Assembly (NCBI GenBank): GCA_030390025.1 | Contig: CM059431.1 | Location: 154,072,001-154,136,000 of the forward strand | Direction of reading: 5' to 3' | Length of the DNA stretch: 64,000 nucleotides | DNA from: Squalus acanthias | Taxonomy: Eukaryota | Shown here: positions 13,878 to 32,810 of the stretch, one piece after another | Position numbering within the stretch: the first letter of the stretch is position 1 | Layout: each line of letters opens with the position of its first letter | Program-made: the position numbers and the translations under genes | Notes under the pieces: generated by a model | The model's database searches: none | What the model saw: the letters and a program-made list of their open reading frames with translations, nothing else | What the model was told of the DNA's origin: nothing

Positions 13878-16800
13878 ATAGAGTCATAGAGTCATAGAGA
13901 TATACAGCACAGAAAGAGGCCATTCGTTCGAACGTCTCCACGCCGGCAATCAAGCTCTGTCTATTCTAAACCTATTTTCCTGCACATGGTCCGTAGCCTT
14001 GTATGCTTATTGAATGTTGTGAGGGTTCCTGCCTCTACCACCCATTCAGGCAGTGAGTTCCAGATTCCAACCACCCTCTGGGTGAAAAAGTTTTTGGTCA
14101 AATACTCTCTAAACCTCCTGCACCTTACCTTGAAACTATGCCCCCTTTTTATTGGCCCCTCTACTAAGGGGTAAAGTTCCATTCTATCTACCATCTTTAT
14201 GCCCACATAATTTTGTGAACCTCAATCAGGTCCCGCCTCAGCCTTCTCTGCTCTAAGGAAAACAACCCCAGCCTGTGCAGTCTCTCTTCATAGCTGAAGC
14301 ACTCCAGCCCAGATAACATCCTGGTGAATCTCCTCTGCACGCTCTCCAATGAAATCACATCCTTCCTATAGTGTGGCGACCAGATCTGCACACAGTATTC
14401 CAGCTGTGGCCTAACTAGAGTTTTGTACAGCTCCATCATAACCTCCCTGCTCTTATATTCTATGCTTCGGCTAATAAAGGCAAGTATCCCATATGCCTTG
14501 TTAACCACCTTATCTACCTGTCCTGCTGCCTTCAGGGATCTATGTACATGCACACCAAGGTCCCTCTGATCCTCTGCCCTTCTAGGGTCCAACCATTCAT
14601 TGTGAATCCCCTTGCCGTGTTAATCCACCCAAAATGCATCAACTCACACTTTTCAGGGTTAAATTCCATTTGCCACTGTTCTGCCCATCTGAGCAGCCCT
14701 TCTATATCGTCCTGTAGGCTGAGGGTTCCCTCCTCGCTATTTACCACCCCACCAATATTCGTGTCATCTGCGAATTTACTGATCATACCTCCTAAATTCA
14801 TATCTAAATCATTAATGTACACTTAAAACAGCAACGGAACCAGCACCGATCCCTGTGGTACACCATTGGATACAGGTTTCCAGTCATAAAAACAACGTTC
14901 TTACATTACCCTCTGCCTCCTGTCACTAAGCCAATTTTGGATCGAATGTGCCAAGTTACCCTGGATTCCATGGGCTCTTTACTTTTTACCAGTCTCCCAT
15001 GCGGGACTTTGCAAGAGCCTTACTTAATTCCATGAAGGCTACATCAACTGCACTATCCTCCTCCACGCACCTAGCCAGCCCCTCGAAAAATTCAATCAAA
15101 TTGGTCAGACATGATCTCTCCCTGACAAAGCCATGCTGACTATTCTTGCTTAATCCTTGCCTCTCCAATTGGAGACTGATTCTGTCCCTCAGAATTTTTT
15201 CCAACGATTACCCTACCACTGATGTTAGGCTCACAGGCCTATAATTCCCTGGATTAACCACACTAACCTTCTTGAATAACGGTACTACGTTAGCTGTTCT
15301 CCAGTCCCCTGGCACCTCCCCTGCGACCACAGATGTTCTGAAAATTTGTGTCAGAGCCCCTGCAATCTCCTCCCTTGCCTCACGCAGCAGCCTGGGATAC
15401 ATCCCGTCTAAGCCTGGGGATTTATCCATTTTTAAGGCCGATAAAACTGCTAGTACCTCCTCCCACTCAATAGAAATTTGTTCAAGTATATCACGAACCC
15501 CCTGTCTGATTTATATGCCTACATAGTCCTTCTCCATAGTGAACACAGATACAAAATATTCATTTAAATCCCCACCTACATCTTCTGGCTCTACACACAG
15601 ATTGCCTCTTTGGTCCTTAATGGGCCCTACTCTTTGCCTAGTTATACTCTTGCCCTTAATATACTTACAAAACAACTTGGGATTTTCCTTTATTTTGCCC
15701 GCCAGTGTTATTCCATGCCCCCTCTTCGATCTCCTAATTTCTTTTTTAAGTACCCCCCTGCACTTTCTATACTCCTCTAGGGCTTCCATTGTTTTTAGTC
15801 CTTTGTATCTGCCAATGCCTCCCTTTTTTTCCTAATCCATTCTCATATATATCCGTTGTCATTCAGGGTTCCCTGGGCTTGTTGGTCCCACACTTGACCT
15901 TTACAGTAACATGTTGCCGTTGTAGTCTCTCTATTTCCTTTCTGAAAGACTCCCACTGCTCTGATGTGGATTTTCCTACAAGTAGCTGATCCCAGTCCAC
16001 TTTGGCCAGGTCCTGCCTTACCATATTAAAATCGGCCTTCCCCCAATTAAATACGTTTATTTCCGGTCCATCTTTGTCTTTTTCCATGACTACCTTAAAT
16101 TTCACCAAATTATGGTCACTGTCACCAAAATGCTCTCCTACTAACACTTCTACCAATTGCCCGACTACATTCCCTAGAAATTGGTCCAGTACCGCCTCCT
16201 CTCTTGTAGGACTTTCTACAAGGCTAACAAGGGAAATCAGGGATAGTATTAAAACCAAGGAAGTTGCATACAAATTGGCCAGAAGTAGCAGCAAACCCGG
16301 GGACTGGGAGAACTTCAAAACTCAGCAGAGGAGGACGAAGGGTTTGATTAGGGCAGGGAAAATAAAATATGAAAGGAAGCTTGCAGAGAACATTAAAATG
16401 GACTGCAAAAGCTTCTATAAATATGTAAAAAGAAAGAGGTTAGTAAAAACAAACGTAGGTCCCCTGCAGTCGGAAACAGGGGAAGTCGTAATGGGGAACA
16501 AGGAAATGGCAGATCAATTGAACAAGTACTTTGGTTCGGTGTTTACTGTGGAGGACACACACAACCTGCCGGAAATAAAAGGGGTCAGAGGATCTGGTAA
16601 GAGGGAGGAGCTGAGGGAAATCCTTATTAGTCGGGAAAAGGTATTGGGGAAATTGATGGGACTGAAGGCTGAAAAATCCCCGGGGCCTGATGGTCTGCAT
16701 TCCAGAGTACTTAAGGAGGTGGCCTTGGAAATAGTGGATGCATTGACGATCATTTTCCAACATTCCTTAGACTCTGGATCAGTTCCGATGGAGTGGAGGG

Positions 16801-18915
16801 TGGCCAATGTAACCCCTCTTTTTAAAAAAGGAGGGAGGGAGAAAGCAGGGAATTATAGACCGGTCAGCCTGACATCGGTCGTGGGTAAAATGATGGAAGC
16901 AATTATTAAAGATGTCATAACAGACCATTTGGAAAGTGGCGACATGATAGGTCCAAGTCAGCATGGATTTGTGAAAGGGAAATCATGCTTGACAAATCTT
17001 CTGGAATTTTTTGAGGATGTTTCCAATAGGGTGGACAGGGGGGAACCAGTAGATGTGGTGTATTTGGACTTTCAGAAGGCCTTCGACAAGGTCCCACACA
17101 AGAGATTGGTGAGCAAAGTTAAAGCACATGGGATTGGGGGTAATGTGTTGACGTGGATTGAGAACTGGTTGGCACACAGGAAACAAAGAGTAGGAGTAAA
17201 TGGGTACTTTTCAGAATGGCAGGCAGTGACCAGCGGGGTACCGCAGGGTTCGGTGCTGGGACCCCAGCTGTTTACATTATATATTAATGATTTGGACGAA
17301 GGGATTAAATGTAATATCTCCAAATTTGCGGATGACACTAAATTGGGAGGCAGTGTGAACAATGAGGAGGATGCTAGGAGGCTACAGAGTGACTTGGACA
17401 GGTTGGGTGAATGGGCAAATGTATGGCAGATGAAGTACAATGTGGATAAATGTGAGGTTATCCACTTTGGTGGTAAAAATAGAGAGGCGGACTATTACCT
17501 GAATGGTGGCAGATTAGGGAAAGGGGACGTGCAACGAGACCTGGGCGTCATGGTACATCAGTCACTGAAGGTGGGAATGCAAGTGCAGCAGGCAGTCAAG
17601 AAAGCAAACGGAATGATGGCCTTCATAGCAAGGGGATTTGAGTACAGGAGTAGGGAGGTGATGCTACAGTTGTACAGGGCCTTGGTGAGGCCACACCTGG
17701 AGTATTGTGCGCAGTTTTGGTCTCCTAACTTAAGGAAGGACATTCTTGCTATTGAGGGAGTGCAGCGAAGGTTCACTAGATTGATTCCTGGGATGGCCGG
17801 ACTGACATATCAAGAAAGATTGGGTCAACTGAACTTGTATCCTCTGGAGTTCAGAAGAATGAGGGGGGATCTTATAGAGACATTTAAAATCCTGACTGGT
17901 TTAGACAAATTAGATGCGGGCAGAATGTTCCCAATGGTAGGGAAAACTAGAACCAGGGGTCACAGTCTAAGGATTAAGGGGAAGCCATTTAGGACTGAGC
18001 TGAGGAGGAACTTCTTCACCCAGAGAGTGGTGAATCTATGGAATTCTCTTCCACAGAAGGTTGTTGAGGCCAGTTCGCTAAATATATTCAAAAGGGAGTT
18101 AGATATAACACTCACAACTAAGGGGATCAAGGGGTATGGCGAGAAAGCAGGAATGGGGTACTGAGGTAGCATGTTCAGCCATGAACGCATTGAATGGCGG
18201 TGCAGGCTCGAAGGACCGAATGGTCTACTCCTGCACCTATTTTCTATGTTTCTATGTTTCTACATGCTGGCTCAAAAAGCTCTCCTGGATGCATTTTAAG
18301 AATTCCGCACCCTCTATGCCTTTCACACTCTGACTATCCCAGTTAATATTGGTGAAGTTGAAATCCCCTACTATTATTACCCTATTATTTCTACACCTCT
18401 CTGATATTTGCCTTCATATCTTTTCCTCTATCTCCCCCTGACTGTTTGGGGGTCTAAAGTACACTCCCAGCAAAGTGGTTGCCCCCTTTTTGTTTTTAGG
18501 TTCTACCCATATTGTCTCATTAGATGAACCTGCTAAGATATCATCCCTCCTCACAGCAGTTATTGACTCGTTGATTAATATTGCGACACCCCATCTTCTT
18601 TTACACCACCCTCTGTCTCGCCTGAAGATTCAATACCCCGGAATATAGAGCTGCCAGTCCTGCCCCTCCCTCAACCATGTCTCTGTGACAGCAACAATAT
18701 CATAATCCGATGTGTTCATCAGCACCTTCAATTCATCTGCCTTACTCGCAAGACTCCTTGCATTAAAATACATGCCATCCAGCCTTGCCATACTCCCTTG
18801 TGCTGTTACATATTTGCTCTGCCTTCCAAGCTGACATGTTTTTTCCTCTATATTTGGCTGTGCATCACTCCGTACTATAGCTCCACTCCGTATCCCATCC
18901 CCCTGCCAAGTTAGT
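13878..18915 (-). mobile_element. Older CR1 LINE (endonuclease to RT to 3' tail), split by a younger CR1
   Basis: (ACTCTATG)n tail at ~13878-13900 and RT fragments at 13961-15789. Endonuclease part with IIVGDFNF at ~18350-18390. Collinear across the 16221-18256 insertion. Confidence 0.9.
16221..18256 (+). mobile_element. Young 5'-truncated CR1 LINE with an uninterrupted RT reading frame
   Basis: Open frame from the junction to TGA at 18164 ([25 protein letters not shown]). (TTTCTATG)n tail. TTTCTACA duplicated at 16213-16220 and 18257-18264. Confidence 0.95.
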
Positions 18916-20167: not shown

Positions 20168-20350
20168 GTGAGTATGACTTACCCTTCACCCTCAATCTGA
20201 TCCCCATTGCCTCTCCTCACCAGCACTCAGCTTTAGGAACCTCGTCCTCCATATCCCACTTGACACTGACATCCATGCACCCTTACCGATTCCCTTTCCC
20301 TCTATGGTCACATTCACCTTACTATTTGACTATGCAGCCCTCACACTATC

Positions 20351-20542
20351 TGTCTTAAGAATGAGCCTTACGCGTGGTGAACTTAAAGTAAGCTTTAATC
20401 AACTAAAAAGGTGGTACATACAAAAGAGGTCTTACTCTAAGTCTCCAGGATCCAACTGATCAGTCCAGTATTTATCCTGGACTAATCACAGGAAGTGACG
20501 CAATAAAGTTCGATTCACAGGAAGCTGTATTGTGTTACCACA
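20351..20542 (-). repeat. 3' LTR
   Basis: Direct repeat of 24579-24771 with about ten differences by eye. Adjacent G-rich PPT on the - strand. Confidence 0.95.
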
Positions 20543-20728
20543 TTCTCCCCCCCCCCCAAAAGATTAGGAGGCCGGGATGCTCCCTACATTTCGTAGCCGC
20601 TGGACGAGGGAGAGCCGCACCCGTTTGGGTTCTCGTAATGGTAGAGGGCCCCTAGCCCGTTTACCCGCCCCGGGCCGTGGACCAGAGTCCGAGTGATCCA
20701 GCCCGCTCTCTGAGGGGTCAGGACGATC

Positions 20729-21793
20729 CTAACTGTGTACTGGTGCCCGAACGGGTGTCGGGCAGCGCTGTTGCAGATCCGTAACTGAGCGTACGTTACG
20801 GGGTGGATCGTGGCTGCGCGTGCGAGCCCCGACGGGCTCATAGTCAGTCTGCCGCAGGTCGGCACGCTGGAGTGAGGTACCAGCCGGCGTAAGATCCAGA
20901 TCGTGATGAGAGGCACCTGGCGAGCCCAGAGATGTGCCTGGTACAATATCATCCCCTGGTGTCCCTCTATGTTTCAGTGGGCACGGAACCAGTTCCCGCA
21001 ATGACACGGTAGATTCCCGACCGTCAGGATACCGAATATAGGCGTAGGTAGGGTTGACGTCAGTGAGCTCAATCTCATCTACCAGGGGGTCATTCTTATA
21101 CGCCCGGACATATCTTCGGAGTAGCACTGGTCCCGGTGCAGTCAGCCACGACGGGAGAGATATCCCATAGGATGAGCGACGCTGAAATCGGAAGAACCGT
21201 TCATGAGGCGTCGTACTTGTGGCGGTCGAAAGGAGGGACCATGTGGAGTGTAATGCGTCTGGAAGTACTGCTTCCCATTGCTGGTTGGGTAGGCCCCGAG
21301 ATCTCAAAGCCAGACGTACCGCATTCCAGATGATAGCGTTAAAACGCTCGACTTGCCCATTCCCGACCGGATGATAAGGCGTCGTTTTGCTGGCAGCAAT
21401 ACCCCGTTCCGAGAGATAGGCCTTGAGTTCTCCTGACATAAAAGAAGGGCTCCGATCCGAATGAACATAGGATGCCATGCCACAGAAACCAAATACCTGC
21501 TCAAGGCAGCTGATAACCGTGGTCGTCAGCATATTGGGGCAGGGAAAGGCAAACGGAAAACGGGAATACTCATCGACCATGGTCAATAGATAAGTGTTGC
21601 GAGTTGAAGAGGGCAACGGCCCCTTAAAATCGATGCTAAGCCGTTGCATTGGCTGGGTCGCATGTATGAGTATACCACCCGAGGGGCGGAAAAACTGAGG
21701 TTTCAATTCCGCACAGACTCTGCAGTCCGAGCACATCTTCTTTACATCCCCGGTAGAGAATGGGAGATTTCGGGACCGCACAAAGTGTAGCAT
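20729..21793 (-). pseudogene. Gypsy integrase (frameshifted from pol)
   Basis: CSDCRVC zinc motif, LSIDFKGP, VHSDR, NGQVERFN. Just upstream the frame reads HPGGTRML; the first His of HHCC appears lost in a short deletion near 21810. Confidence 0.9.
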
Positions 21794-24015
21794 GCGAGTA
21801 CCGCCCGGATGTCTACGAGCGTAGAGGGTGCCATGGCGGAGCAGAATGCTCGTGTGAGGCTATCCGGAGCCACATTCTCCTTGCCAGGTCGATAGTGGAT
21901 GGTGTAACCAAAATAGGCCAATTCCAGCCGCCAAAGCTGGATTTTATTATTTTTAATTTTGGTCCGTTTTCGATTATCGAGCATGAAGGCGACCGATCGC
22001 TGGTCCGTGATTAAGGTAAAGTGCTGGCGAGCTAGGAGATGACTCCACTTCTGTACTGCCTCTATGATGGCTGTAGCTTCTTTCTCGACTGGAGGATAAT
22101 GTAGCTCAGCCCCTTGAAAAGTCCTGGACAAAAATGTCACCGGACGACCTTCCTGATTCAGAGTGGCCGAGATCACCACCTCCGAGGCATCACACTCAAC
22201 AAGAAAAGGAAGACTCTCATCGATGGAGTGAAGAGCCGCTTTCTCCAACTGTTTTTTCAGGAGGTTAAAGGCTGCAACAGCCGCTGTGTCTAGTGGGAAT
22301 GTGCTGGCTTTCAGTAGAGGTTGGATTCGGTCCGAGAAGTTAGGAATCCATTTAGCATAGTATGCAAACAGACCGAGGGCCCGGCGCAAGGAGGCCGGAT
22401 TCTTAGGTGGCGTGAGTTCTTGGAGTGGGCGAAGCCTTTCAGGGTCAGGTTTAATGATGCCATTGCCCAAACGATAGCCAAGGATGTTGATGGTTGGTTG
22501 TGACCCAATGGATTTAGCCGCATTTAATGTCAAATTACGGTGCTGGAGTGCATCCCAAAATCGTTGGAGATTGGAGTCATGTTCCCGCTGATTGCGACCT
22601 GCGACAGTAATATTGTCCAGATAAGGAAACGTATCCTTCAAGTCTTCCTGTTTTACCAGGTCATCCATTGCTCGCTGGAAGACAGCCACTCCATTAGTGA
22701 CCCCAAAGGGGAGGCGACGAAATTGATACAGCCGTCCATTGGCTTCAAAGGCCGTATACTGCTTGTCTGAGACCTTCAAGGGTACCTGATGATAGGCACT
22801 TTTCAGATCATATGTTGAGAACACCGTGTACTCAGCCAGTTTATTAACCATATCATCGATGCGCGGCAATGGGTATGCGTCCAAGTCCGTATATTTATTG
22901 ATGGTCTGTGAATAGTCAATGCACAGCCGTTTCTTGTGAGGTTGTAGAGGGTTCTGAACAATAACGACCTGGGCGCGCCATGGCGACGAACAAGGCTCGA
23001 TGATATCCTCTGCTAAAAGCCGAGAACTCTCAGCCGCAATAAAAGACTGGTCTTCCTGACTGAAACTTCGTGACTTTGTTATAATCGGTTTGCATCGAGG
23101 AGGGATACTGGTAAACAGTGAGGGTTCATCCAGTGAAGCTGCTGACAATGCACAGAACGGTAATCGAGGTAGTATATTAGAAATAGTGAGTTCAGGTTTG
23201 GATCCGCCGAACTCAATGGTGAGCTTCTTATGCTGCTTTTGAAAATCCAGCCCTAAGATAAGATCACTACATAAGTCCTTGAGCACCGAAAGCCGGGTGG
23301 AGGGATACCTGTGACCATTAAGTGTTATTTCAACCATACAAAAGCCAGAAATTTTGGTATTAAGTGATGACTGAGCCATCGCAATTGCCTGTTCCGATGG
23401 GAAAACATGTAGCTTTAACTCTGCAACAATCTGTTCCCTAATGAAACTATCAGTGCTACCTGAGTCAATTAAGGCATCTAAAGTATGTCCATTAATTGAT
23501 GCTTTTGTAGCTGCATGGAATAGGTTCTGAGGACAAGCAGCAGTAATTGGTGTCGTTGCACAAAGAGTGGCTGAAACTCTAGGTGTGTTTCTTCGAGAGG
23601 AAACCCGAGAGGAAGCACGATAGATTTTAGCCGGAACATCTTGATAGGCCCTTACCGGGGCAGTTCGGTAGGACTTAGCTTGATAAGCCCTCGTAGAGGC
23701 TCTTGATAGGCAAACCTTTGCAAAATGACCCTTTTTGTTGCAATGACTGCAAAACGCATTGCGAGCAGGGCATAATTTCCGAGGGTGAAACTCATCACCA
23801 CAAAAGAAGCATTTCTTAGATTGCCAAGAGGCTGCCACAATGGGGTCATCATCCTCTTCATCAGTGAAGTCATCAGATTGATCGTCAGGGATAAAGTCCT
23901 CCCTAATAGAGTTCACCTGTGGCCTCTTAAATTGCCTGACTGTAGTTAAGGCAGCAGACCGAGGTCTGGGCACTGTATAAAGGTCTGCATTCTTTTTGCC
24001 AGATCTAGAGAGCAA
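21742..24015 (-). pseudogene. Gypsy gag C-terminus (two CCHC knuckles), protease, RT and RNase H
   Basis: CFFCGDEFHPRKLC and CSHCNKKGHFAKVC knuckles; LIDSGS protease; YDLKSAYHQ, LPFG and YLDN in RT; ECDAS, EKEATA and TDQ in RNase H. Confidence 0.93.
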
Positions 24016-24500
24016 GCCATGTCATAATCTCTCTGAAGCTCAAGTGTCTTACTTTCCAGTAGACGCTGGCGTATAAATGGGGAGGCAAGCCCGCAGATGA
24101 AAGCATCACGGATCATTTCTTCACGGTACAGATCAGCTGAGGCCGCCGGAAAGTTACAGTCCATACTAAGTCTGCGAAGCTCTTGGAGGAATTTATCAAT
24201 GGATTCCTCTGGCCCTTGTTGGGCTGTAGCTAGTAGATGTCTGGCATAGACCTCATTCGGTGTCTTAGTATATAGTCTCTTAAGCGTCCGAATTGCCTCC
24301 TCGTAACTGCCCCATTCCTCTACATACTGAAATACATTCGGGGTGACACAGTTGATGAGTAATCGCAACTTTGAGTCATCATCAGCCTTGCAATATTCAA
24401 GAAAATTGTCAAACGTGCGATACCAGTGTTTCCGCACCTTACCGGCTGCTGGGGTGTTTGGGTCCAAGTCAAGACGCGATGGTTTAAGGATGTTTTCCAT
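23946..24500 (-). pseudogene. Gypsy gag N-terminal part
   Basis: ATG 79 nt downstream of the 5' LTR; MIRDAFICGL-type gag motif. Shifts into the pol frame at the A-run near 23995. Confidence 0.85.
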
Positions 24501-24578
24501 GATGGGTGATTCCCTGGATCCTTAGTTCCGAGTTCGTCCAAAAAGTTTGAGTGCAAAGTTTTCCAAAGTTGATTAAAT

Positions 24579-24771
24579 TGTCGTAAGAATGAGCCTTACG
24601 CGTGGTGAACTTAAAGTAAGCTTTAATCAACTAAAAAGGTGCTACATACAAAAGAGGTCTTACTCTATGCCCCTCCAGGATCCAACTGATCAGTCCAGTA
24701 TTATCCTGGACTAATCACAGGAAGTGATGCAATAAAGTTCGAGTCACAGGAAGCTGTATTGAGTTACCACA
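24579..24771 (-). repeat. 5' LTR
   Basis: Direct repeat of 20351-20542. On the - strand it is followed by ATTTAATCAACT instead of a TGG-starting tRNA PBS. Confidence 0.95.
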
Positions 24772-24934
24772 CTATCTATCGCTGTCATGCTTTGAAAACA
24801 ACTTACAGCACACAGGGAGGGCATTTAGTCTCGCCACTTCAATCCATTTTTGTCTCCTTCTAAGCATCTACTATGGATTCTCTGCACTCACTCCTTCAAT
24901 CTCACTCAAACTCCACTTGTCTCCCTAATTGCAG

Positions 24935-25094: not shown

Positions 25095-25250
25095 GTGACA
25101 GAATAGTTTTCCATCTCTCTCATTGACATTGCATGAGTCGCTGATGATGAATCTGAAGCTCTAATAGATGGATTTAAGATCATCTGCAATATGCAATGTG
25201 CACGTAACCTTGGCATCACATCTCTGACTCTTTCCTTTACTCCCGCATAG

Positions 25251-25919
25251 GAACATCGCAACCACCCATCCCCACGAGCCAGGAGGAAGAGCCTGAGCAG
25301 CCAGACTCCTCAGAGGAAGCTGCAACCTCTGAGGGCGTAGCGTCAGCAGAACTCAGCGCAAGCAGCACCAGCGCAGACACTCACACCTCGGTGGGACCCA
25401 AGAGGACATAGAGTAGTGTTGTCACCTGGTGTATCACAGCTCACAATTGAGCATCAGCATATGGTGGAGACAGGGACAGCAGGGAGAGTCCTAGTCGGGG
25501 GGAGCAGGACTCTCCTAGATCGGCTCAGCTGCATATCGACACTCTGCCTCTGGGTTCATCCATAAGGTCAGCGGTGCTGGGACTCCAGGAACAGATGCAG
25601 GAGTCTCTGACATGTTTTGTCTCCAGGGTCGCTGCGAGTGTGGAGCGAATGGAGGAGTCCATAGCGAACATGAGCAGAGACTTTGTGGAGTCATTGGCGC
25701 ATGAACGCATCACCAGGGAAAGGATGGCAACCTTGCTGGAAACGGTGGCTACAGTAGAGGAGATGATGGCTACCGCTATGGAGGAGATAAGTCGCCAGAG
25801 TGTAGAAAACATGCTCATTGTTCAGAATAGACTGGCATCTCTTGAGGAGCGATTTTCATCTATTGAACACAGAAACCAAACCTTCATGGAAGTCCTTGTG
25901 AGTAGGACTTCCAGTTCAG
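25251..25919 (+). pseudogene. Harbinger Myb/SANT-like protein, exon 3 (acidic/Ser-rich plus coiled-coil), frameshifted and truncated
   Basis: gcatag acceptor and coiled-coil-like ORF 25574-26014. Stop/frameshift near 25405. Cut by the deletion junction at 25919. Confidence 0.7.
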
Positions 25920-26206
25920 GTTTCACTGGCGTGTTTCAAATCAGGCGTGCTTCACGTGGGAAAAGGGTTAAACTACCTAAAAAGTTTCAAAATGGTATTA
26001 CAGAGCCAGTTTAGGGCTTGTTAAGGGCTTTAGTGGCCTCTCCCGCCTCTTGCATGCGGGACTTAGGCGGGAACACCGCAAACGATATTATCAAAATTGC
26101 GTGGAGGCGGAATGGAGTCGGCATCAGTTCCGCACGCCACTTTTCGCTATTTTAACACCCCACAAGCCTCCAAACCCGACTCCACGGCCTTATAAAAATC
26201 CAACCC

Positions 26207-26748
26207 ATTGAGTGTGTCTGCTTCCACCACTTCTGCCGGAATCGAATTACAGCTCCTCTCCACTCGCTGCGTAAAAAAGATTTTCCTCACATCTCACATG
26301 AATCTCTTGCCCAAAGCCTTAAATCTGTGTCCCCTGGTTCTTGTACCATCAGCTAGTGGGAAACGCTTCTCCCCGTCTAGCCTATCCAAAACCGGCATAA
26401 TCTTGCACACTACTATCAAATCAATCTTCAATCTCCTTAGCTCGAATGAAAACAAATCCAGCTTTTCCAACCTGTCCTTGTAGCAAAGGTCCCCCATCCC
26501 CGGAACCATTCTGGTAAATCTACTCTGCATCCTCTCAAGGGCATTCACATACTTCATAAAGTGTGGTGACCAGAACTGGACGCAATAATCAAGTTGTGGC
26601 CTAACCATCACTTTATAAATGTTCAGCATAACTTCTCTACTTTTGTGCTCAATACCTCCATTTATGAAGCCCAAGATCTCATATATTTTGTTATCCACTC
26701 TCTCAAAATGTCCTGCCACCTTCATGGGCCTATGCACATTAACTCGCA
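26207..26748 (-). mobile_element. CR1 RT C-terminal fragment between the two Harbinger copies
   Basis: VRPQLDYCVQFWSP and RTRGHRFK in ORF 26294-26860. Looks like the same subfamily as 46700-47660 and 62526-64000. Confidence 0.85.
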
Positions 26749-26750
26749 GG

Positions 26751-29700
26751 TTCATCTCTCTCATTGACATTGCATGAGTCACTGATAATGAATCTGAAGC
26801 TCTAACAGATGGATTTATGATCATCTGCAATATGCAATGTGCATGTAACCTTGGCATCACATCTCTGACTCTTTCCTTTACTCCCCCACAGGACCATCAC
26901 AAGCACCCGTCCCCACTAGCCAGGAGGAAGTGACTGAGCATCCAGACTCATCAGAGGAAGCTGCAACCTCTGAGGGCGCAGCGTCAGCAGAATTCAGTGC
27001 ATCCAGCACCAGCGCAGACACTCACACCTCGGTGGGACCCCCGTGACATAAAGTAGTCTTGTCACCTGGTGTATCACAGCTCAAAATTGAGCATCAGCCG
27101 ATGGTGGAGACAGGGACATCAGTGGAGAGACCTAGTCGGAGGGCGCAGGACTCTCCTAGCTCGGCTCAGTTGCTTGTCAACTCTCTGCCTCTGGGGCCAT
27201 GCATAAGATCAGCGGTGCTGGAAATCCAGGAATAGATGCAGGCGTCTCTGACAGGTTTTGTCTCCAGGGTCGCTGCGAGTGTGGAGCGAATGAAGGAGTC
27301 CATAGCAAATATGATCAGAGCCTTTTTGGAGTCATTGGCGGATGAACGCATCACAATGGAAAGGATGGCAAACTCCATGGAGGTGATAAGTCGCCAGAGT
27401 GCAGAAAACATGGTGAGAGTTCTTAATAGAATGACATCTCTGGAGGAGCGATGAACATCTATTGAACAGTGAAACCAGACCTTCATGGAAGTCCTTCTGA
27501 GTAGTACTGCCAGTGCAGATACGGGTCCCCATGGTCCCCCTGATGTGCAGCAAGGTGCTCTCAATCCACTTGCAAGCGCTGAGGTGGACCTGACCCATGA
27601 GAGGGATGTTGGTGGCAGACAACAAGGAGGTGGGGGCTCCTCTCCAAGCGCTCACACTTCCATGCCACTGACAAGTCCTCGGTCAGAGCCTCACCAGAGT
27701 CCGCACCCAACTGAGATCTGCGTCTCAACCCCTGCCCAGCCGCAAGAGCAGCAGACTGTTGCCGAGCCCTCGCAGGTTCTTAACCCCAGAGCACGCCCGC
27801 CAAAGGTGTCGAGGCAGGAGCAGCAACAAACTGAGCAGGGGGCCTCCACTTCTGCTGAAGCCACAGCAGAAGTATCAAGTAGGAGCACGCGTAAGAGAAA
27901 GAAACTGCACAAATAGTCACAAGGGTAGTCATTTGGGTGAATTTTGATGTTGAATGTGAAAAAGCCATCAGGTGTAAAGTGTAAATAAAAACTCTGATGG
28001 CTACAGCTGCAGTTGTGGCGTCTGTCTTTTCGCTAATGGGACTTCCACAATGATGCCTTAGGATAACTTGAAATTATCATTATGGTGGTCACATTGTTAG
28101 GGATCCGCTTGTTCTGGGGCATTGTCGTAGCTCTGGTAAGAAGCCGCGAGCCAAAAGTGTTTGCTTGTCTAGGCTTAACAAATCTGGCCAAGATGAGTGC
28201 GTTCCTTGCATTCCGGGCAGCTATGGTCTCGCGTAATGCTGCCGCTGGTTGAGGGGGCTCAACAAGTTGTTCGTTCTCTCTCTCCTCCTCCTCCACCTCC
28301 TCCTCATCTGAGGAGGCTATGTGAGGAGCCACTTGGTCCTCCGGCATCTGTAAGCCACGAAGCTGTGCCATGTTGTGAAGTGCACAGCAAACCACGCCGA
28401 TTCAGGAGACCCTGGCTGCTGAGTATTGCATCTGATATATCCAGGCATCTGAAGCGCATCTTGAGCATTCCGATGGTTTGCTCGATTATGGCTCTCGTGG
28501 AAATGTGGCTGGAGTTGTAGCTCTCCTCAGCTGCGTTGGATGGGCTCCTCAACGGCGTCATTAGCCACGTCTTCAGGGGATAGCCCTTGTCTCCAAGGAG
28601 CAATCCGTGAAGTTGGTCTGGCGGACTGAATAGCGGAGGCACACTAGATTGGCGCAGTATGAAGGAGTCATGGCAACTGCCAGGGTACTTGGCACAAACA
28701 TGCAGAACTTCCTTCTTGTGGTAACACACCAGCTGAACGTTGAGGGAGTGTTTGTCCTTGCGGTTGACAAACATACCTGGATTGCGATGGGGTCCCTTAA
28801 GGGCCACATGTGTGCAGTCAACGAAGCCCTGCACGCTTGGAAAGCCTGCCAGATTAGTTCATCCAACAGCACGCCCCGTGAAACTTGCTCGATCATTGGT
28901 GAAATGAATGTGATTGTGCGCTATGGCAAAGAGGGCATCGTTTACCTGCGTGATGCAGGTCTGTGCGGCCGCCTAGGAGATGCCGCAGAGGTCTGCTGCT
29001 GATCCCTGGAATGAGCCTGAGGCAACAATGGTGAGTGCGGTGGTGACTTTGACGGACACTGATAAGGGGTGTCCACCTGGTCCTCTGGGCTCCAGCTCAT
29101 GTTGCAGCATTGCGCAGATGTTACCCACTATCTCTCGCGAAAGTCGGAGCCGCGTTTGGCACTGCTGCTCAGACATGTTCAGGTAGCTGACCCTGTGTCT
29201 GTAGACCCTGTTTCGGGGGTATCTCCTGCGCCGACGGCTTTCCGTGCGCTGGCCCCTTCTGGCCGGTGCAGCTTCAGGTGGGTGAGCAGCAGATAGGCGC
29301 TCCTGCTATTGCTGCTGCTGTTGTTGCGGCTTTTGTTCATGATCTGCTGGTGCCGCGGCTGGTGTACGTCCTCATCTGATGCCCAGGAGGGAAGGAAATA
29401 AATGGCTCCCATGTCTCTGGTATATGCCTCAATTGAGGAAGGGCTCAATAAGGGTGGCGAAAGGGGTTACCAGGAGCTCACTCTGGATATGGGTGTCAGG
29501 CTCCAAACTTCCAGAGCATTGGTTATGCCGTCTAAAAGTTCCCCAGACCTGTGACAACAATGTCCTGCAACCTGCAAATGATGGCTGCTCAAATCTCCTA
29601 TATAATGGCTGAGCTGCAGCTGAGAGTCAGCAATCCACTTCTGCTCTCGCCAGGTTTCACCGGCGTGTTTCAGCTCAGGCGTGCTTCACTGGAAAAAGGG

Positions 29701-29938: not shown

Positions 29939-31154
29939 GTGGTCTGTAACGAAGAGGAATTCACGACATATGTCTCATACAGGACGATTCTTTTCATTAA
30001 TAGGAGAACTTAGGCTAAAATTAGAGACCGTCCATTTGATCTTGTCTTTATTTTCGGATAGTTATCTATTGGATGCACTGAGGTTCACAAATGCCACTAA
30101 ATAATGCCTAAATCTATTGAGAAATCAACTGATGGGGATTGTAACAAATCGCTCGAATATGCATCAGAGCAGGTGGAATGACATTCCCTCTCATTTTCCT
30201 TTCCTCCTGATCTCTGATGATGCCTTGGCACAGCAGTGCGGCTGGAAACAGGACTCAGAATTTGAGTAATCGCAGACGCGAACCCACATCTAAATGCCTC
30301 ACTTGGCATCATTGATTTCAACAAAAACATTATTGATTCGGAAAATCGGATCTGTTCGAAGAATTGGAATTTTAGAAAAGTACAATTAAAACTCGCTTGT
30401 ACATTATTCAATCTGCAAATCATAACAATGTTATTTGGCTCCAGTTTAAAATAAAACATATATTTCGTTACTGATAATGCCAGTGGCACAAGGGACAGTA
30501 AGCAGAGGACACCGATTTCAGGTAATTAGCTAAAAAGCCAGAGGGCACATGAGGAAAAACATTTATGGAGCTAGTTGTTATGACCTGGAAATCCCTGCCT
30601 GAAATGCTGGTGGAATCAGATACAGTAGTAGCTTTCCAAAGATAATTTTATACATACTTGAAAGAGATAAATATGCAGGGCTATGGGGAAAGAGCAGGGA
30701 AGTGGACGAATTGGAGAGCTCTTTCGAAAAACCGGCACAAGCACGAAGGTTTGAACTAGCTTCTTCTATGTTGTACGATTCTGTGAATCTAAGAAATGGT
30801 GTCTTTCTCCCAACAGCGATCTACTTTATCATGATTAAAGGGCAGGGGAAAATATCTTACTGATTAATCCGGATTCTCCCGTGGTGCGAAGAGTGCGATG
30901 GATTCCAATGTGATATTGCCAACATCCATTCTGATGTAATTAAATGTGCATCGCAGCACTTTCAGGCATTACCAGAACAGACACTCCGGTGCCATCTCTT
31001 ACGATTCCATTTAGCACAGCAAAAAGTGGAATGAGTGAATGTGTTCATTAATTGATCGAATTCAATATCCGTTGCTGCTTTTACCTAATATTACCCCACA
31101 TGCCAGTAAAACATTAGATGCTGATAATGCTTTTTAACATATTCGGTAAATTAA

Positions 31155-32810
31155 CTGAGTATTTTACATTTGTGTAGCACGGGCTCCAGCTGATGGATGC
31201 CTTCATCTTGTATCCCACAGGTACTGAGATTCAACTCTTCAATCACTTCAACGGCCTTTAGTGCGATTGACAGAACCTCACACTCAGAAGGTATAAGAGG
31301 ACACAGTGTGAATTTCATTGTCTTTATCGGTGTTAATGCGGCCTTCATCATTTTAATGTCTCCAAATTGAAGAAAATAATGCAATAACTGTAAGAAAGTC
31401 CTTTGGCTTTGCCCATCTTCCAGGTTCTGAACACGTCTTTTGACATTTTCTGTGAGCCAATCCGACACACACGGGAATGCTTCAGAAGGAATTTCCCCCA
31501 TTTTTCTTTCAAGCTGATCATGTTGAATTCCGTGAGGACAGACCGACAAGAAAACTGATAATATATTTAATCTCTCGTCAATGCACGTATACCCTTCATT
31601 GAGCAATCGTGTCTATCCTTTTGCTGGCGTGCTTAGACTTTTGATAAGTGCAGCGACAATGTCCAGCACGGCGGAATGAGTGAATGTGTAGACAACACTA
31701 GACAGATGTTCATCACGAATCTCCATCATAAACGCAGAGACAGCTTTGGAAAGTTTAAGTCTGTGGCGATTGATTTGGTTTTCATTAAACACAACGGTTT
31801 TGTTGCAAAATCCCTTGTAGGCTAACTCGTCCAGTTTCAGCAACATGTCGCGAGAGCTTTCTACGTAACAGCCGCATCTCTCTAAACGTTTGGTCACGTA
31901 CTCGAAGAACATCCGTGTGCTGGTTGTGACGGGCAAGGTCTCTCCCCCGCTGATTGTGTCCGGTGTAATGCTAATATTGAAGTGAGGACCGAGCAATACA
32001 AAGGATTATAGCACATAGTGTACAATGTCTCATTCTGCTCAATGTACTCGATTACATCTGTCGAAAACTGTTGATCTCCAAAATAACGGCAGGCAGAAGT
32101 ATTGTTTTATTTTCTCAGAGGTGAAACCCAGAATTTCGACCGTTAGAATTATGTTTGCCTTTCTCAGCGTCTTCAATTTCCACGGCCGGCTTGTGATCAG
32201 TACTGAACAGCCTTTCAGTAAATGTCCCTGTGTGAGGCTGCGCACGATGTCTGAAACTTCACTGCAGCACTCGGATCGAAACATTGATATTGGCGTTCGT
32301 TGTCTCTCTGAATATCGGTGAAATCGATAGTTTGTTCAAATTGGTCTAAATCAGCAAATATAAAGAATATCTTTCCGGTTCTTTCCACAGACGTTCCAAC
32401 TCAGCTTGGAAATGGGGGTAGGAATCTAGGATCAGGCTATTTCGACATGTTTTTCCTTTTATTAAATTCAATTGTCGAACCTTAAAAGGAAAGAAATCTT
32501 TAACCTGTTTGTATATTTTCCTGCGGCCCAATCATGGATTATCTTCTGTATCATGCAGTATTTCCTAATCCCCGTGGACCCAATTACCACGGTTGTCGCG
32601 GAACTGCCTGTTTTCGTGAAACTCAGCAATTGATTCAGGTGAATTTCTTCTAGTTCATTCTGGACGGTTTTGCTCTGTAATTCTTCAAGCTCTCTACCTC
32701 GGACCTTCAGTTCATTTTCTACTAATCTTTGCTCACGCAGGGAAGCAACAATCGTTACTTTAGTACATTTTTGGTTTTGAGGAGGGTTGCTTTGTGCTGC
32801 AGTTCTATCT
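31155..32810 (-). pseudogene. NLR copy 2: NACHT exon, multiply frameshifted; no LRR or N-terminal exons found
   Basis: ORFs 31151-31606, 31613-31996, 32039-32284 and 32346-32531 align with ORF 54420-56102. Walker A degraded (GSTGIRKY); donor reads TT. Confidence 0.93.

Follow-up and report, generated by a model that had tools for sequence, protein, structure and literature searches.

A PBS that follows its own LTR: candidate self-priming in a clade of animal Gypsy retrotransposons

The retrotransposon Tf1 primes its reverse transcription with the first 11 bases of its own RNA, which are released by an RNase H cut (PMC7175516). Together with Tf2, also from Schizosaccharomyces pombe, and Tj1 from S. 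japonicus, it represents the self-primed Ty3/gypsy chromoviruses (PMC7175516, PMC4600332, PMC5341516). These elements carry a chromodomain and lack a tRNA-type primer-binding site (PBS); the sequence behind their 5' LTR is instead complementary to an 11-base stretch of their own LTR. The RNA of Tf1 has been described as a 'pretzel' of three duplexes, one of which is formed between leader and U5 (PMC10085805), and its PBS is recopied from the primer (PMC11042837). Self-priming is taken to be common to the Tf1/sushi chromoviruses, those of vertebrates included (PMC10085805, PMC4600332), and has been predicted for sushi-ichi and Tcn1, which stand for vertebrates and non-seed plants (PMC6317226, PMC10085805, citing Butler et al. 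2001). A predicted self-priming of vertebrate Gypsy elements is thus not new in itself. Self-primed reverse transcription has so far been demonstrated for Tf1 alone, and it is regarded as a hallmark of the Tf1/sushi group (PMC6317226, PMC7175516, PMC10085805).

A precedent for a separate origin exists in the TAR lineage of plant Ty1/copia elements (Houba, Osr-1), for which self-priming has been predicted from the complementarity of LTR and PBS (PMC6317226); this lineage, however, belongs to another superfamily and is confined to plants. For a non-chromoviral Gypsy clade of animals, we found no report of self-priming in the open full-text literature, although an earlier remark in Repbase is possible. 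Likewise, the portions considered of PMC2864245, PMC6934838, PMC3601003, PMC6238403, PMC5006619, PMC3670739, PMC8556966, PMC2774666 and PMC5341516 do not describe it for such elements. In the following, we describe an element of this kind, its relatives, and how the pairing between its PBS and LTR may be explained.

The window element and its PBS

The stretch analyzed here, referred to as the window, comprises 64,000 nucleotides of a Squalus acanthias contig. Its minus strand holds a complete Ty3/Gypsy LTR retrotransposon with the domain order PR-RT-RH-IN, target-site duplications, a polypurine tract and TG...CA LTRs, which are identical in 184 of 194 alignment columns. Target-site duplications of 5 bp also flank all seven of the other copies that retain both ends. 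The features of the element are, in the order of transcription:

24772..24776, minus strand: 5' target-site duplication GATAG, 5 bp
24579..24771, minus strand: 5' LTR, 193 bp, TG...CA
24622..24632, minus strand: LTR 11-mer AGTTGATTAAA, candidate self-primer, whose 3' end is the poly(A)-signal-like ATTAAA
24609..24621, minus strand: small hairpin starting at the base directly after the 11-mer (predicted; weakly enriched across families)
24582..24600, minus strand: U5 stem CGTAAGG/TCTTACG beside the LTR end (predicted; marginal across families)
24578..24578, minus strand: one-base spacer (A) between LTR end and PBS
24567..24577, minus strand: PBS position TTTAATCAACT, complement of the LTR 11-mer, without a tRNA-type TGG
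23946..24500, minus strand: gag, first frame, with its ATG at 24500
21742..24021, minus strand: second frame, with two CCHC knuckles, aspartyl protease, RT (YLDN) and RNase H
20729..21859, minus strand: third frame, integrase core
20543..20557, minus strand: polypurine tract G11-AGAA, adjoining the 3' LTR
20351..20542, minus strand: 3' LTR, 192 bp
20470..20476, minus strand: TATA-like ATAAATA, not conserved across families and of doubtful role
20394..20404, minus strand: copy of the 11-mer in the 3' LTR, where the hexamer would serve as poly(A) signal
20346..20350, minus strand: 3' target-site duplication GATAG

In this copy, the single gag-pol frame is disrupted twice by a change of frame, once near 23950-24020 and once near 21745-21860. 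The RNase H motifs, which are catalytic, are present. A search of Rfam over 20200-24900 gave no match. To judge from the list of open reading frames and repeats, the surroundings hold what we take to be a CR1-type LINE frame (15990-18164, plus strand) and, presumably, a fragmented Harbinger-like transposase and NLR-like frames; a 1.64-kb tandem duplication is found among these neighbors (spans 25100-27500; 28000-29300, minus strand; 31150-32000, minus strand).

The 5' LTR ends in ...GACA and is followed by a single A (24578) and by TTTAATCAACT (24577-24567), which is the exact complement of AGTTGATTAAA at 24632-24622 in the 5' LTR and at 20404-20394 in the 3' LTR. The two arms are 44 nt apart, and the LTR end was set independently of them, by the alignment of the two LTRs and by the 5-bp duplication GATAG. 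The two observations of the initial annotation, a PBS without the features of a tRNA-type site and an exact complement within both LTRs, are confirmed, as is the ATTAAA that it had pointed out in the 11-mer. A TGG is absent from the PBS of the window element and from those of all 26 families described below, which rules out a tRNA 3' end as primer. In PMC6317226, elements are classed as self-primed if their LTR is complementary, over at least 10 bases, to a sequence located 0-5 nt behind the 5' LTR; the window element falls into this class. The minimum free energy (MFE) fold of 24632-24567 contains the 11-bp duplex, a hairpin beginning at the next base, and the U5 stem CGTAAGG/TCTTACG that had been proposed earlier, here with one G-U pair; in the 3' LTR copy, this stem has one mismatch.

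Since the 11-mer is A/T-rich and its duplex weak (-9.8 kcal/mol), one might suspect a chance complementarity, or a short inverted duplication that was inherited without function. Yet a match of at least 11 bases at an offset of 0-3 after the LTR end arose in only 5 of 20,000 dinucleotide shuffles of the LTR, and the comparison of families below also speaks against this explanation.

The TATA-like site noted near 20470 is indeed present in the 3' LTR, about 70 nt upstream of the 11-mer, but its counterpart in the 5' LTR is one A shorter, and the 26 families share no TATA-like word at a common distance; a conserved TATA box upstream of the primer was not found among them. The word lies within the loop that a 6-bp inverted repeat encloses in U3 (20463-20482, minus strand, and the corresponding site of the 5' LTR).

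Co-variation of PBS and LTR

In the source genome (3.7 Gb), 1,828 LTR/PBS junctions match the flanks of the window's family, 1,799 of them with the exact 11-mer, and both arms are identical in the best 30 copies fetched. Six copies with both ends have LTRs that are identical at 191-194 of 194 positions, which indicates that the family is young. Among the 29 non-canonical junctions, we probed three positions by pattern and obtained 7, 0 and 2 PBS variants, to which one further was added. None of these ten variants, all from the window's own family, has a matching change in the 5' LTR; they appear to be isolated late mutations and are neutral to the self-priming model. A protein search revealed two other families in the same genome that have other LTRs and the same 11-mer, with pairing over 12 and 13 bp, where the extensions are made by different letters.

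Half-tRNA priming is known from plant Copia lineages (PMC6317226), and an internal tRNA fragment might accordingly serve as primer here. The comparison of the PBS with host tRNAs, which the initial annotation had proposed, gave a divided answer in a set that samples the Lys, Cys and Ile types: no 3' end pairs with the PBS, but one internal candidate exists, the D-loop AGTTGGTTAGA of tRNA-Ile(AAT), which pairs with the PBS of the window via two G-U wobbles. This D-loop sequence is present in the host as the commonest of 54 pattern matches, and ARAGORN calls one of its loci as tRNA-Ile(AAT). LTR elements recopy their PBS from the primer, so that a tRNA primer should drag the PBS toward the exact complement of the tRNA; the 1,799 of 1,828 junctions, however, match the LTR rather than the tRNA complement. 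Furthermore, the sole exact 11-mer in a D-arm-like context (L237) is not called as a tRNA by ARAGORN. Given also that the PBS follows the LTR of each family across 18 different sequences (see below), we regard priming by this tRNA fragment as very unlikely and largely refuted by the co-variation.

Independently of this question, the LTR 11-mer and the next two bases (24632-24620, minus strand) resemble a tRNA D-loop/D-stem and differ by two transitions from tRNA-Ile(AAT) (L244). This resemblance may be due to chance, or is perhaps the trace of an ancestral tRNA-fragment primer that was captured into the LTR.

The other families of the clade in the source genome that were introduced above, at least two in number (L031 and L032-L060), have an RT/RNase H about 80% identical to that of the window element, and contigs from public runs point to a sister subfamily with an extra base before the 11-mer, which would lengthen the duplex to 12 bp. 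At C1:562000-579000 of this genome, three internal units and four shared LTRs form a head-to-tail array (L169, L170) that is enclosed by one 5-bp target-site duplication. Such shared-LTR tandems are a product of PBS-directed recombination in Tf1 (PMC11042837), although unequal crossing-over would produce this array equally well.

A search with the RT/RNase H of the window element yielded 1,626 matches. The 120 that were listed are 55-86% identical to it, many of them as single frames of about 1,200 residues, and 96 of the 120 have all four RNase H motifs. The named relatives among the matches listed come from crustaceans, cnidarians, a tunicate and a catshark, while further searches added relatives from a ray, a hagfish, a cockroach and a nematode; none was found in viral contigs. 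On the DNA level, the survey beyond the source genome covered the best 80 of 511 metagenome loci and 9 loci in metagenome-assembled genomes (MAGs). The latter (L141-L149) are animal-type elements inside bacterial MAGs and most likely represent misbinned host DNA. Throughout the clade, the LTRs are very short, with about 150-230 bp, which sets it apart from Tf1.

For an unbiased scan, we considered the window element and all loci from L031 to L149 with a gag start and at least 120 bases before it (65 loci, with three too short), and determined, within the 230 nt that precede gag, which perfect inverted repeat with a loop of 15-100 nt is the longest. A repeat of at least 10 bp is found in 60 of the 65 loci and in 30 of the 34 outside the source genome, as compared to shuffle means of 6.2-7.7 bp, and its right arm nearly always begins one base past CA. 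A perfect 10-bp repeat is missing in five of the 65: in three of these (L034, L104, L134), one arm differs by a single substitution or by a few, and two (L084, L116) lack a recognizable LTR before gag. In 11 loci outside the source genome, the LTR end could be set by the LTR pair together with a 5-bp target-site duplication; nine of them show the same one-base offset, while the remaining two are a PBS variant and a copy with an altered LTR end.

To compare the families, we chose one locus for each (n = 26); the scan provided 24 of them, and two are collapsed contigs. The set excludes L084, L116 and the truncated L074, and the junctions of L104 and L134 were set by hand, for L104 with the 3' LTR. 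As many as 23 of the 26 families come from metagenome or MAG contigs, for which animal hosts are assumed. For 25 of them, RT/RNase H is 47-80% identical to that of the window element; one locus has no RT. The 26 families have 19 different LTR 11-mers and 18 different PBS sequences, and both sides change at nine of the 11 positions. Nevertheless, 281 of the 286 cells are Watson-Crick paired, whereas permuted partners reach a mean of 209 and a maximum of 241 (0 of 100,000 as high), figures that are not probabilities since the families are related. A MAFFT alignment of 15 loci, built without structure, has 99.4% of its cells paired and seven of the 11 pairs changed on both sides; it contains 21 cells with changes on both sides, as opposed to 3.8 in shuffles and 1-3 in slid controls.

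Because relatedness inflates these controls, pairs of close relatives carry more weight. In L069, one primer position differs in both LTRs from that in L071, L072 and L094, and the PBS has changed to match. Similarly, L062, L063/L065 and L064 are near neighbors in the RT tree and yet differ in their 11-mers, of which there are three, each matched by its PBS. In L067, both LTRs have changed while the PBS is unaltered; this locus thereby represents an intermediate that the primer-copying scheme discussed below predicts.

The pairing is therefore real, fixed in its position and clade-wide, and it co-varies over a deep clade. The initial annotation had named co-variation among relatives as a check on its suggestion that the element primes without a tRNA. 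The 26 families clearly bear out the former and support the latter as a prediction from sequence. Chance complementarity is scarcely credible in the face of compensating changes across families whose RT/RNase H is 47-80% identical and whose loops have no evident similarity. Nor can a fixed tRNA explain the pairing, as the 18 PBS sequences each follow their own LTR.

Placement of the clade

Among known systems, the self-primed chromoviruses come closest, but the window element looks like a member of a different clade. A chromodomain is present neither in the third frame of the window element nor in the short frame that follows it, and the Pfam domains Chromo and SH3_Tf2-1 are found in none of 40 full-length relatives, while Chromo was detected in five of ten comparison proteins. 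Two CCHC knuckles, a feature of Mag-type Gag proteins, are present in 40 of 56 full-length relatives. In agreement with this, the Gag profile matches five Mag-type proteins with E-values of 1e-20 to 1e-36, whereas its matches to chromovirus-like proteins are weak (1e-6 or worse). A search of the atlas with Gag led to animal Gag clusters, none of which carries a clade name. The RT active-site motif is YLDN in the window element; among the 120 relatives listed, 94 have xxDN, 19 xxDD, and seven do not match. The DN form of the motif appears to be tolerated, given that DN families are abundant and young.

Our RT/RNase H tree comprises 38 rows, ten from the clade and 28 chosen from 48 outgroup matches, which were labeled by Pfam domains and by known motifs; the label 'Mag-type', in particular, is our assumption from RT motifs. 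Named Tf1, sushi, Cigr-1 or SURL rows are not part of this set. A search of the source genome with DUF4939 for chromovirus references gave no match, and its SH3_Tf2-1 matches were dropped because they led to retrovirus-like RTs. In the tree, the clade forms a single long-stemmed branch (100/99) outside the six chromovirus-like rows (100/95) and the four Mag-type rows (100/99), while the backbone is without resolution. The RT/RNase H identity is about 30% to the chromovirus-like rows and about 25% to the Mag-type rows. The AU test does not reject the clade as sister to the chromovirus rows (p 0.28) or to the Mag-type rows (p 0.38); a placement among the three chromodomain-bearing rows borders on rejection (p 0.057).

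With the Mag lineage (A/B/C clades, Steamer), the clade shares the single gag-pol frame, the short LTRs and the two CCHC knuckles, although it does not group with the Mag-type rows in the free tree. Steamer is a Mag-lineage element. Its PBS starts with TGG and corresponds to tRNA-Leu (PMC8905726), whereas the window clade is without such a TGG. As a name for the clade, Cigr-1, which has one frame of about 1,210 codons and is in this respect similar to the relatives of the window element, is our best guess. It is listed within the Mag lineage in PMC6238403 (supplement 1).

In summary of these comparisons, the clade is probably not a Tf1/sushi chromovirus, as far as can be judged from a tree in which named Tf1/sushi rows are absent. 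If so, its mechanism likely arose separately, and we consider a separate origin of its self-priming from that of Tf1/sushi probable.

The fold and its possible role

The duplex measures 11 bp in the window element and 11-19 bp in its relatives, and across the 26 families its 3' edge is fixed while its 5' edge varies. Upstream of the 11-mer, the pairing continues for 0-8 bases, with an average of 3.0 as compared to 0.69 for permuted partners; in the 14 families with a pyrimidine before AG, the extension averages 2.3 against 1.2 (4 of 20,000). This makes a start of the RNA exactly at the A, as in Tf1, doubtful, and lends some support to the caution, voiced earlier, that the RNA may begin elsewhere than with the 11-mer. 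In 21 of the 26 families, the 11-mer begins with AG, as would be appropriate for an initiator; judging by the extension, however, the RNA often seems to start a few bases further upstream. Contigs assembled from eight public runs, guessed to be RNA or of uncertain type, displayed no transcript start, end or poly(A) junction and are neutral on this point. Directly before the primer, the signal of a splice acceptor does not clearly exceed that of shuffles (28 of 500).

At the fixed edge, the families show a weak enrichment of the hairpin that begins at base 12, with a mean of 3.69 bp as compared to 3.07 (reached by 1 of 300 shuffles), and a marginal one of the U5 stem (11 of 300). The leader-U5 duplex, which forms the third duplex of the Tf1 'pretzel', shows no excess in the clade (229 of 300 shuffles as high), in a crude test confined to perfect helices. 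The spacer of one base is compatible with a cut behind base 11 or, provided that integrase removes two bases from both ends, behind base 10. Sixteen of the 26 families have a canonical hexamer, AATAAA or ATTAAA, that overlaps the primer; the other ten pair without a canonical hexamer in the duplex, and two of these have one elsewhere in the loop.

By analogy with Tf1, we think it likely that the element primes its minus-strand DNA with an LTR-derived piece of its own RNA. Transcription would start in the 5' LTR, at the paired stretch or a few bases upstream of it, and this stretch would fold back onto the PBS. The RNase H of the element would then cleave where the duplex ends on its 3' side, beside the small hairpin, either behind ...AUUAAA or one base before that point, and the new 3' OH would prime the copying of U5 and of the short remainder of R. 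Plus-strand synthesis would in turn copy the primer and thus rewrite the PBS from the LTR, so that the two would remain complementary despite drift of the LTR. Folding would conceal the poly(A)-like hexamer of the primer in the 5' LTR but leave it accessible in the 3' LTR, and a short overlap of R would remain for strand transfer. Compared with Tf1, the clade differs in its one-base spacer, its duplex of up to 19 bp and its hexamer, which usually lies within the primer, as well as in that its priming is predicted from sequence.

The same 11-mer is certainly also near the 3' end of the RNA, as it recurs in the 3' LTR and overlaps the poly(A) hexamer in many families. Conceivably, then, this R copy before the poly(A) tail pairs with the PBS over a long range and is cut after ...AUUAAA, such that the 3' end of the genome's own or of a co-packaged RNA primes. 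Priming from the 3' copy would account for the co-variation equally well, and for the upstream pairing past AG without a special start site. On the other hand, we know of no precedent for it, and the cut would remove the R that is needed for the first strand transfer on that molecule. The local fold-back at the 5' end is moreover short-range, with loops of 23-67 nt, and is the MFE fold in most families. Altogether, we consider priming from the 3' copy unlikely.

A further explanation would see the duplex as regulatory, masking the poly(A) signal in the 5' LTR or acting in packaging, while some other RNA primes and displaces it. The hexamer within the paired stretch of 16 families fits such a role, and selection on a masking hairpin would likewise result in co-variation. 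The pairing is, however, retained in the ten families without a canonical hexamer in it; the constant one-base gap to the LTR end is relevant to priming, whereas masking would not require it; and no other primer candidate suits the 18 PBS sequences. For these reasons, a purely regulatory duplex seems quite improbable to us.

We therefore return to priming by the LTR-derived RNA piece, of which we propose a more specific form, tentatively and with a little less belief than doubt: an animal Gypsy clade with Mag-type Gag and YxDN RT may have invented self-priming independently, using as primer a poly(A)-signal segment of R that is variable in length, not necessarily the capped 5' end and possibly the 3' copy, in a fold that would both start reverse transcription and hide the 5' poly(A) signal. 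Self-priming as such would not surprise; the surprise would lie in a second large, animal-wide case in which the primer overlaps the poly(A) signal. If this holds true, self-priming would be a repeatedly evolved strategy, found in a widespread animal clade outside Tf1/sushi that is active in one vertebrate-sized genome with well over a thousand copies, and the RNase H of the clade would be the second to cut an RNA-RNA duplex. Such elements would presumably also be beyond the reach of a control of PBS sites by 3'-tRNA fragments, and annotation software that requires a tRNA PBS would overlook or misinterpret them.

Two minor observations concern the edges of the duplex. In the family of L066, L103, L119 and L131, it extends to 19 bp in one copy and reaches the start context of gag, so that the fold could also gate translation. 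At the other edge, the primer mostly ends in AAA and is followed by GCCT, ACCT, GCTT or GCCA in 21 of the 26 families; the polypurine tract likewise ends in AA before TG, and the similar ends of primer and polypurine tract possibly reflect a common cut-site preference.
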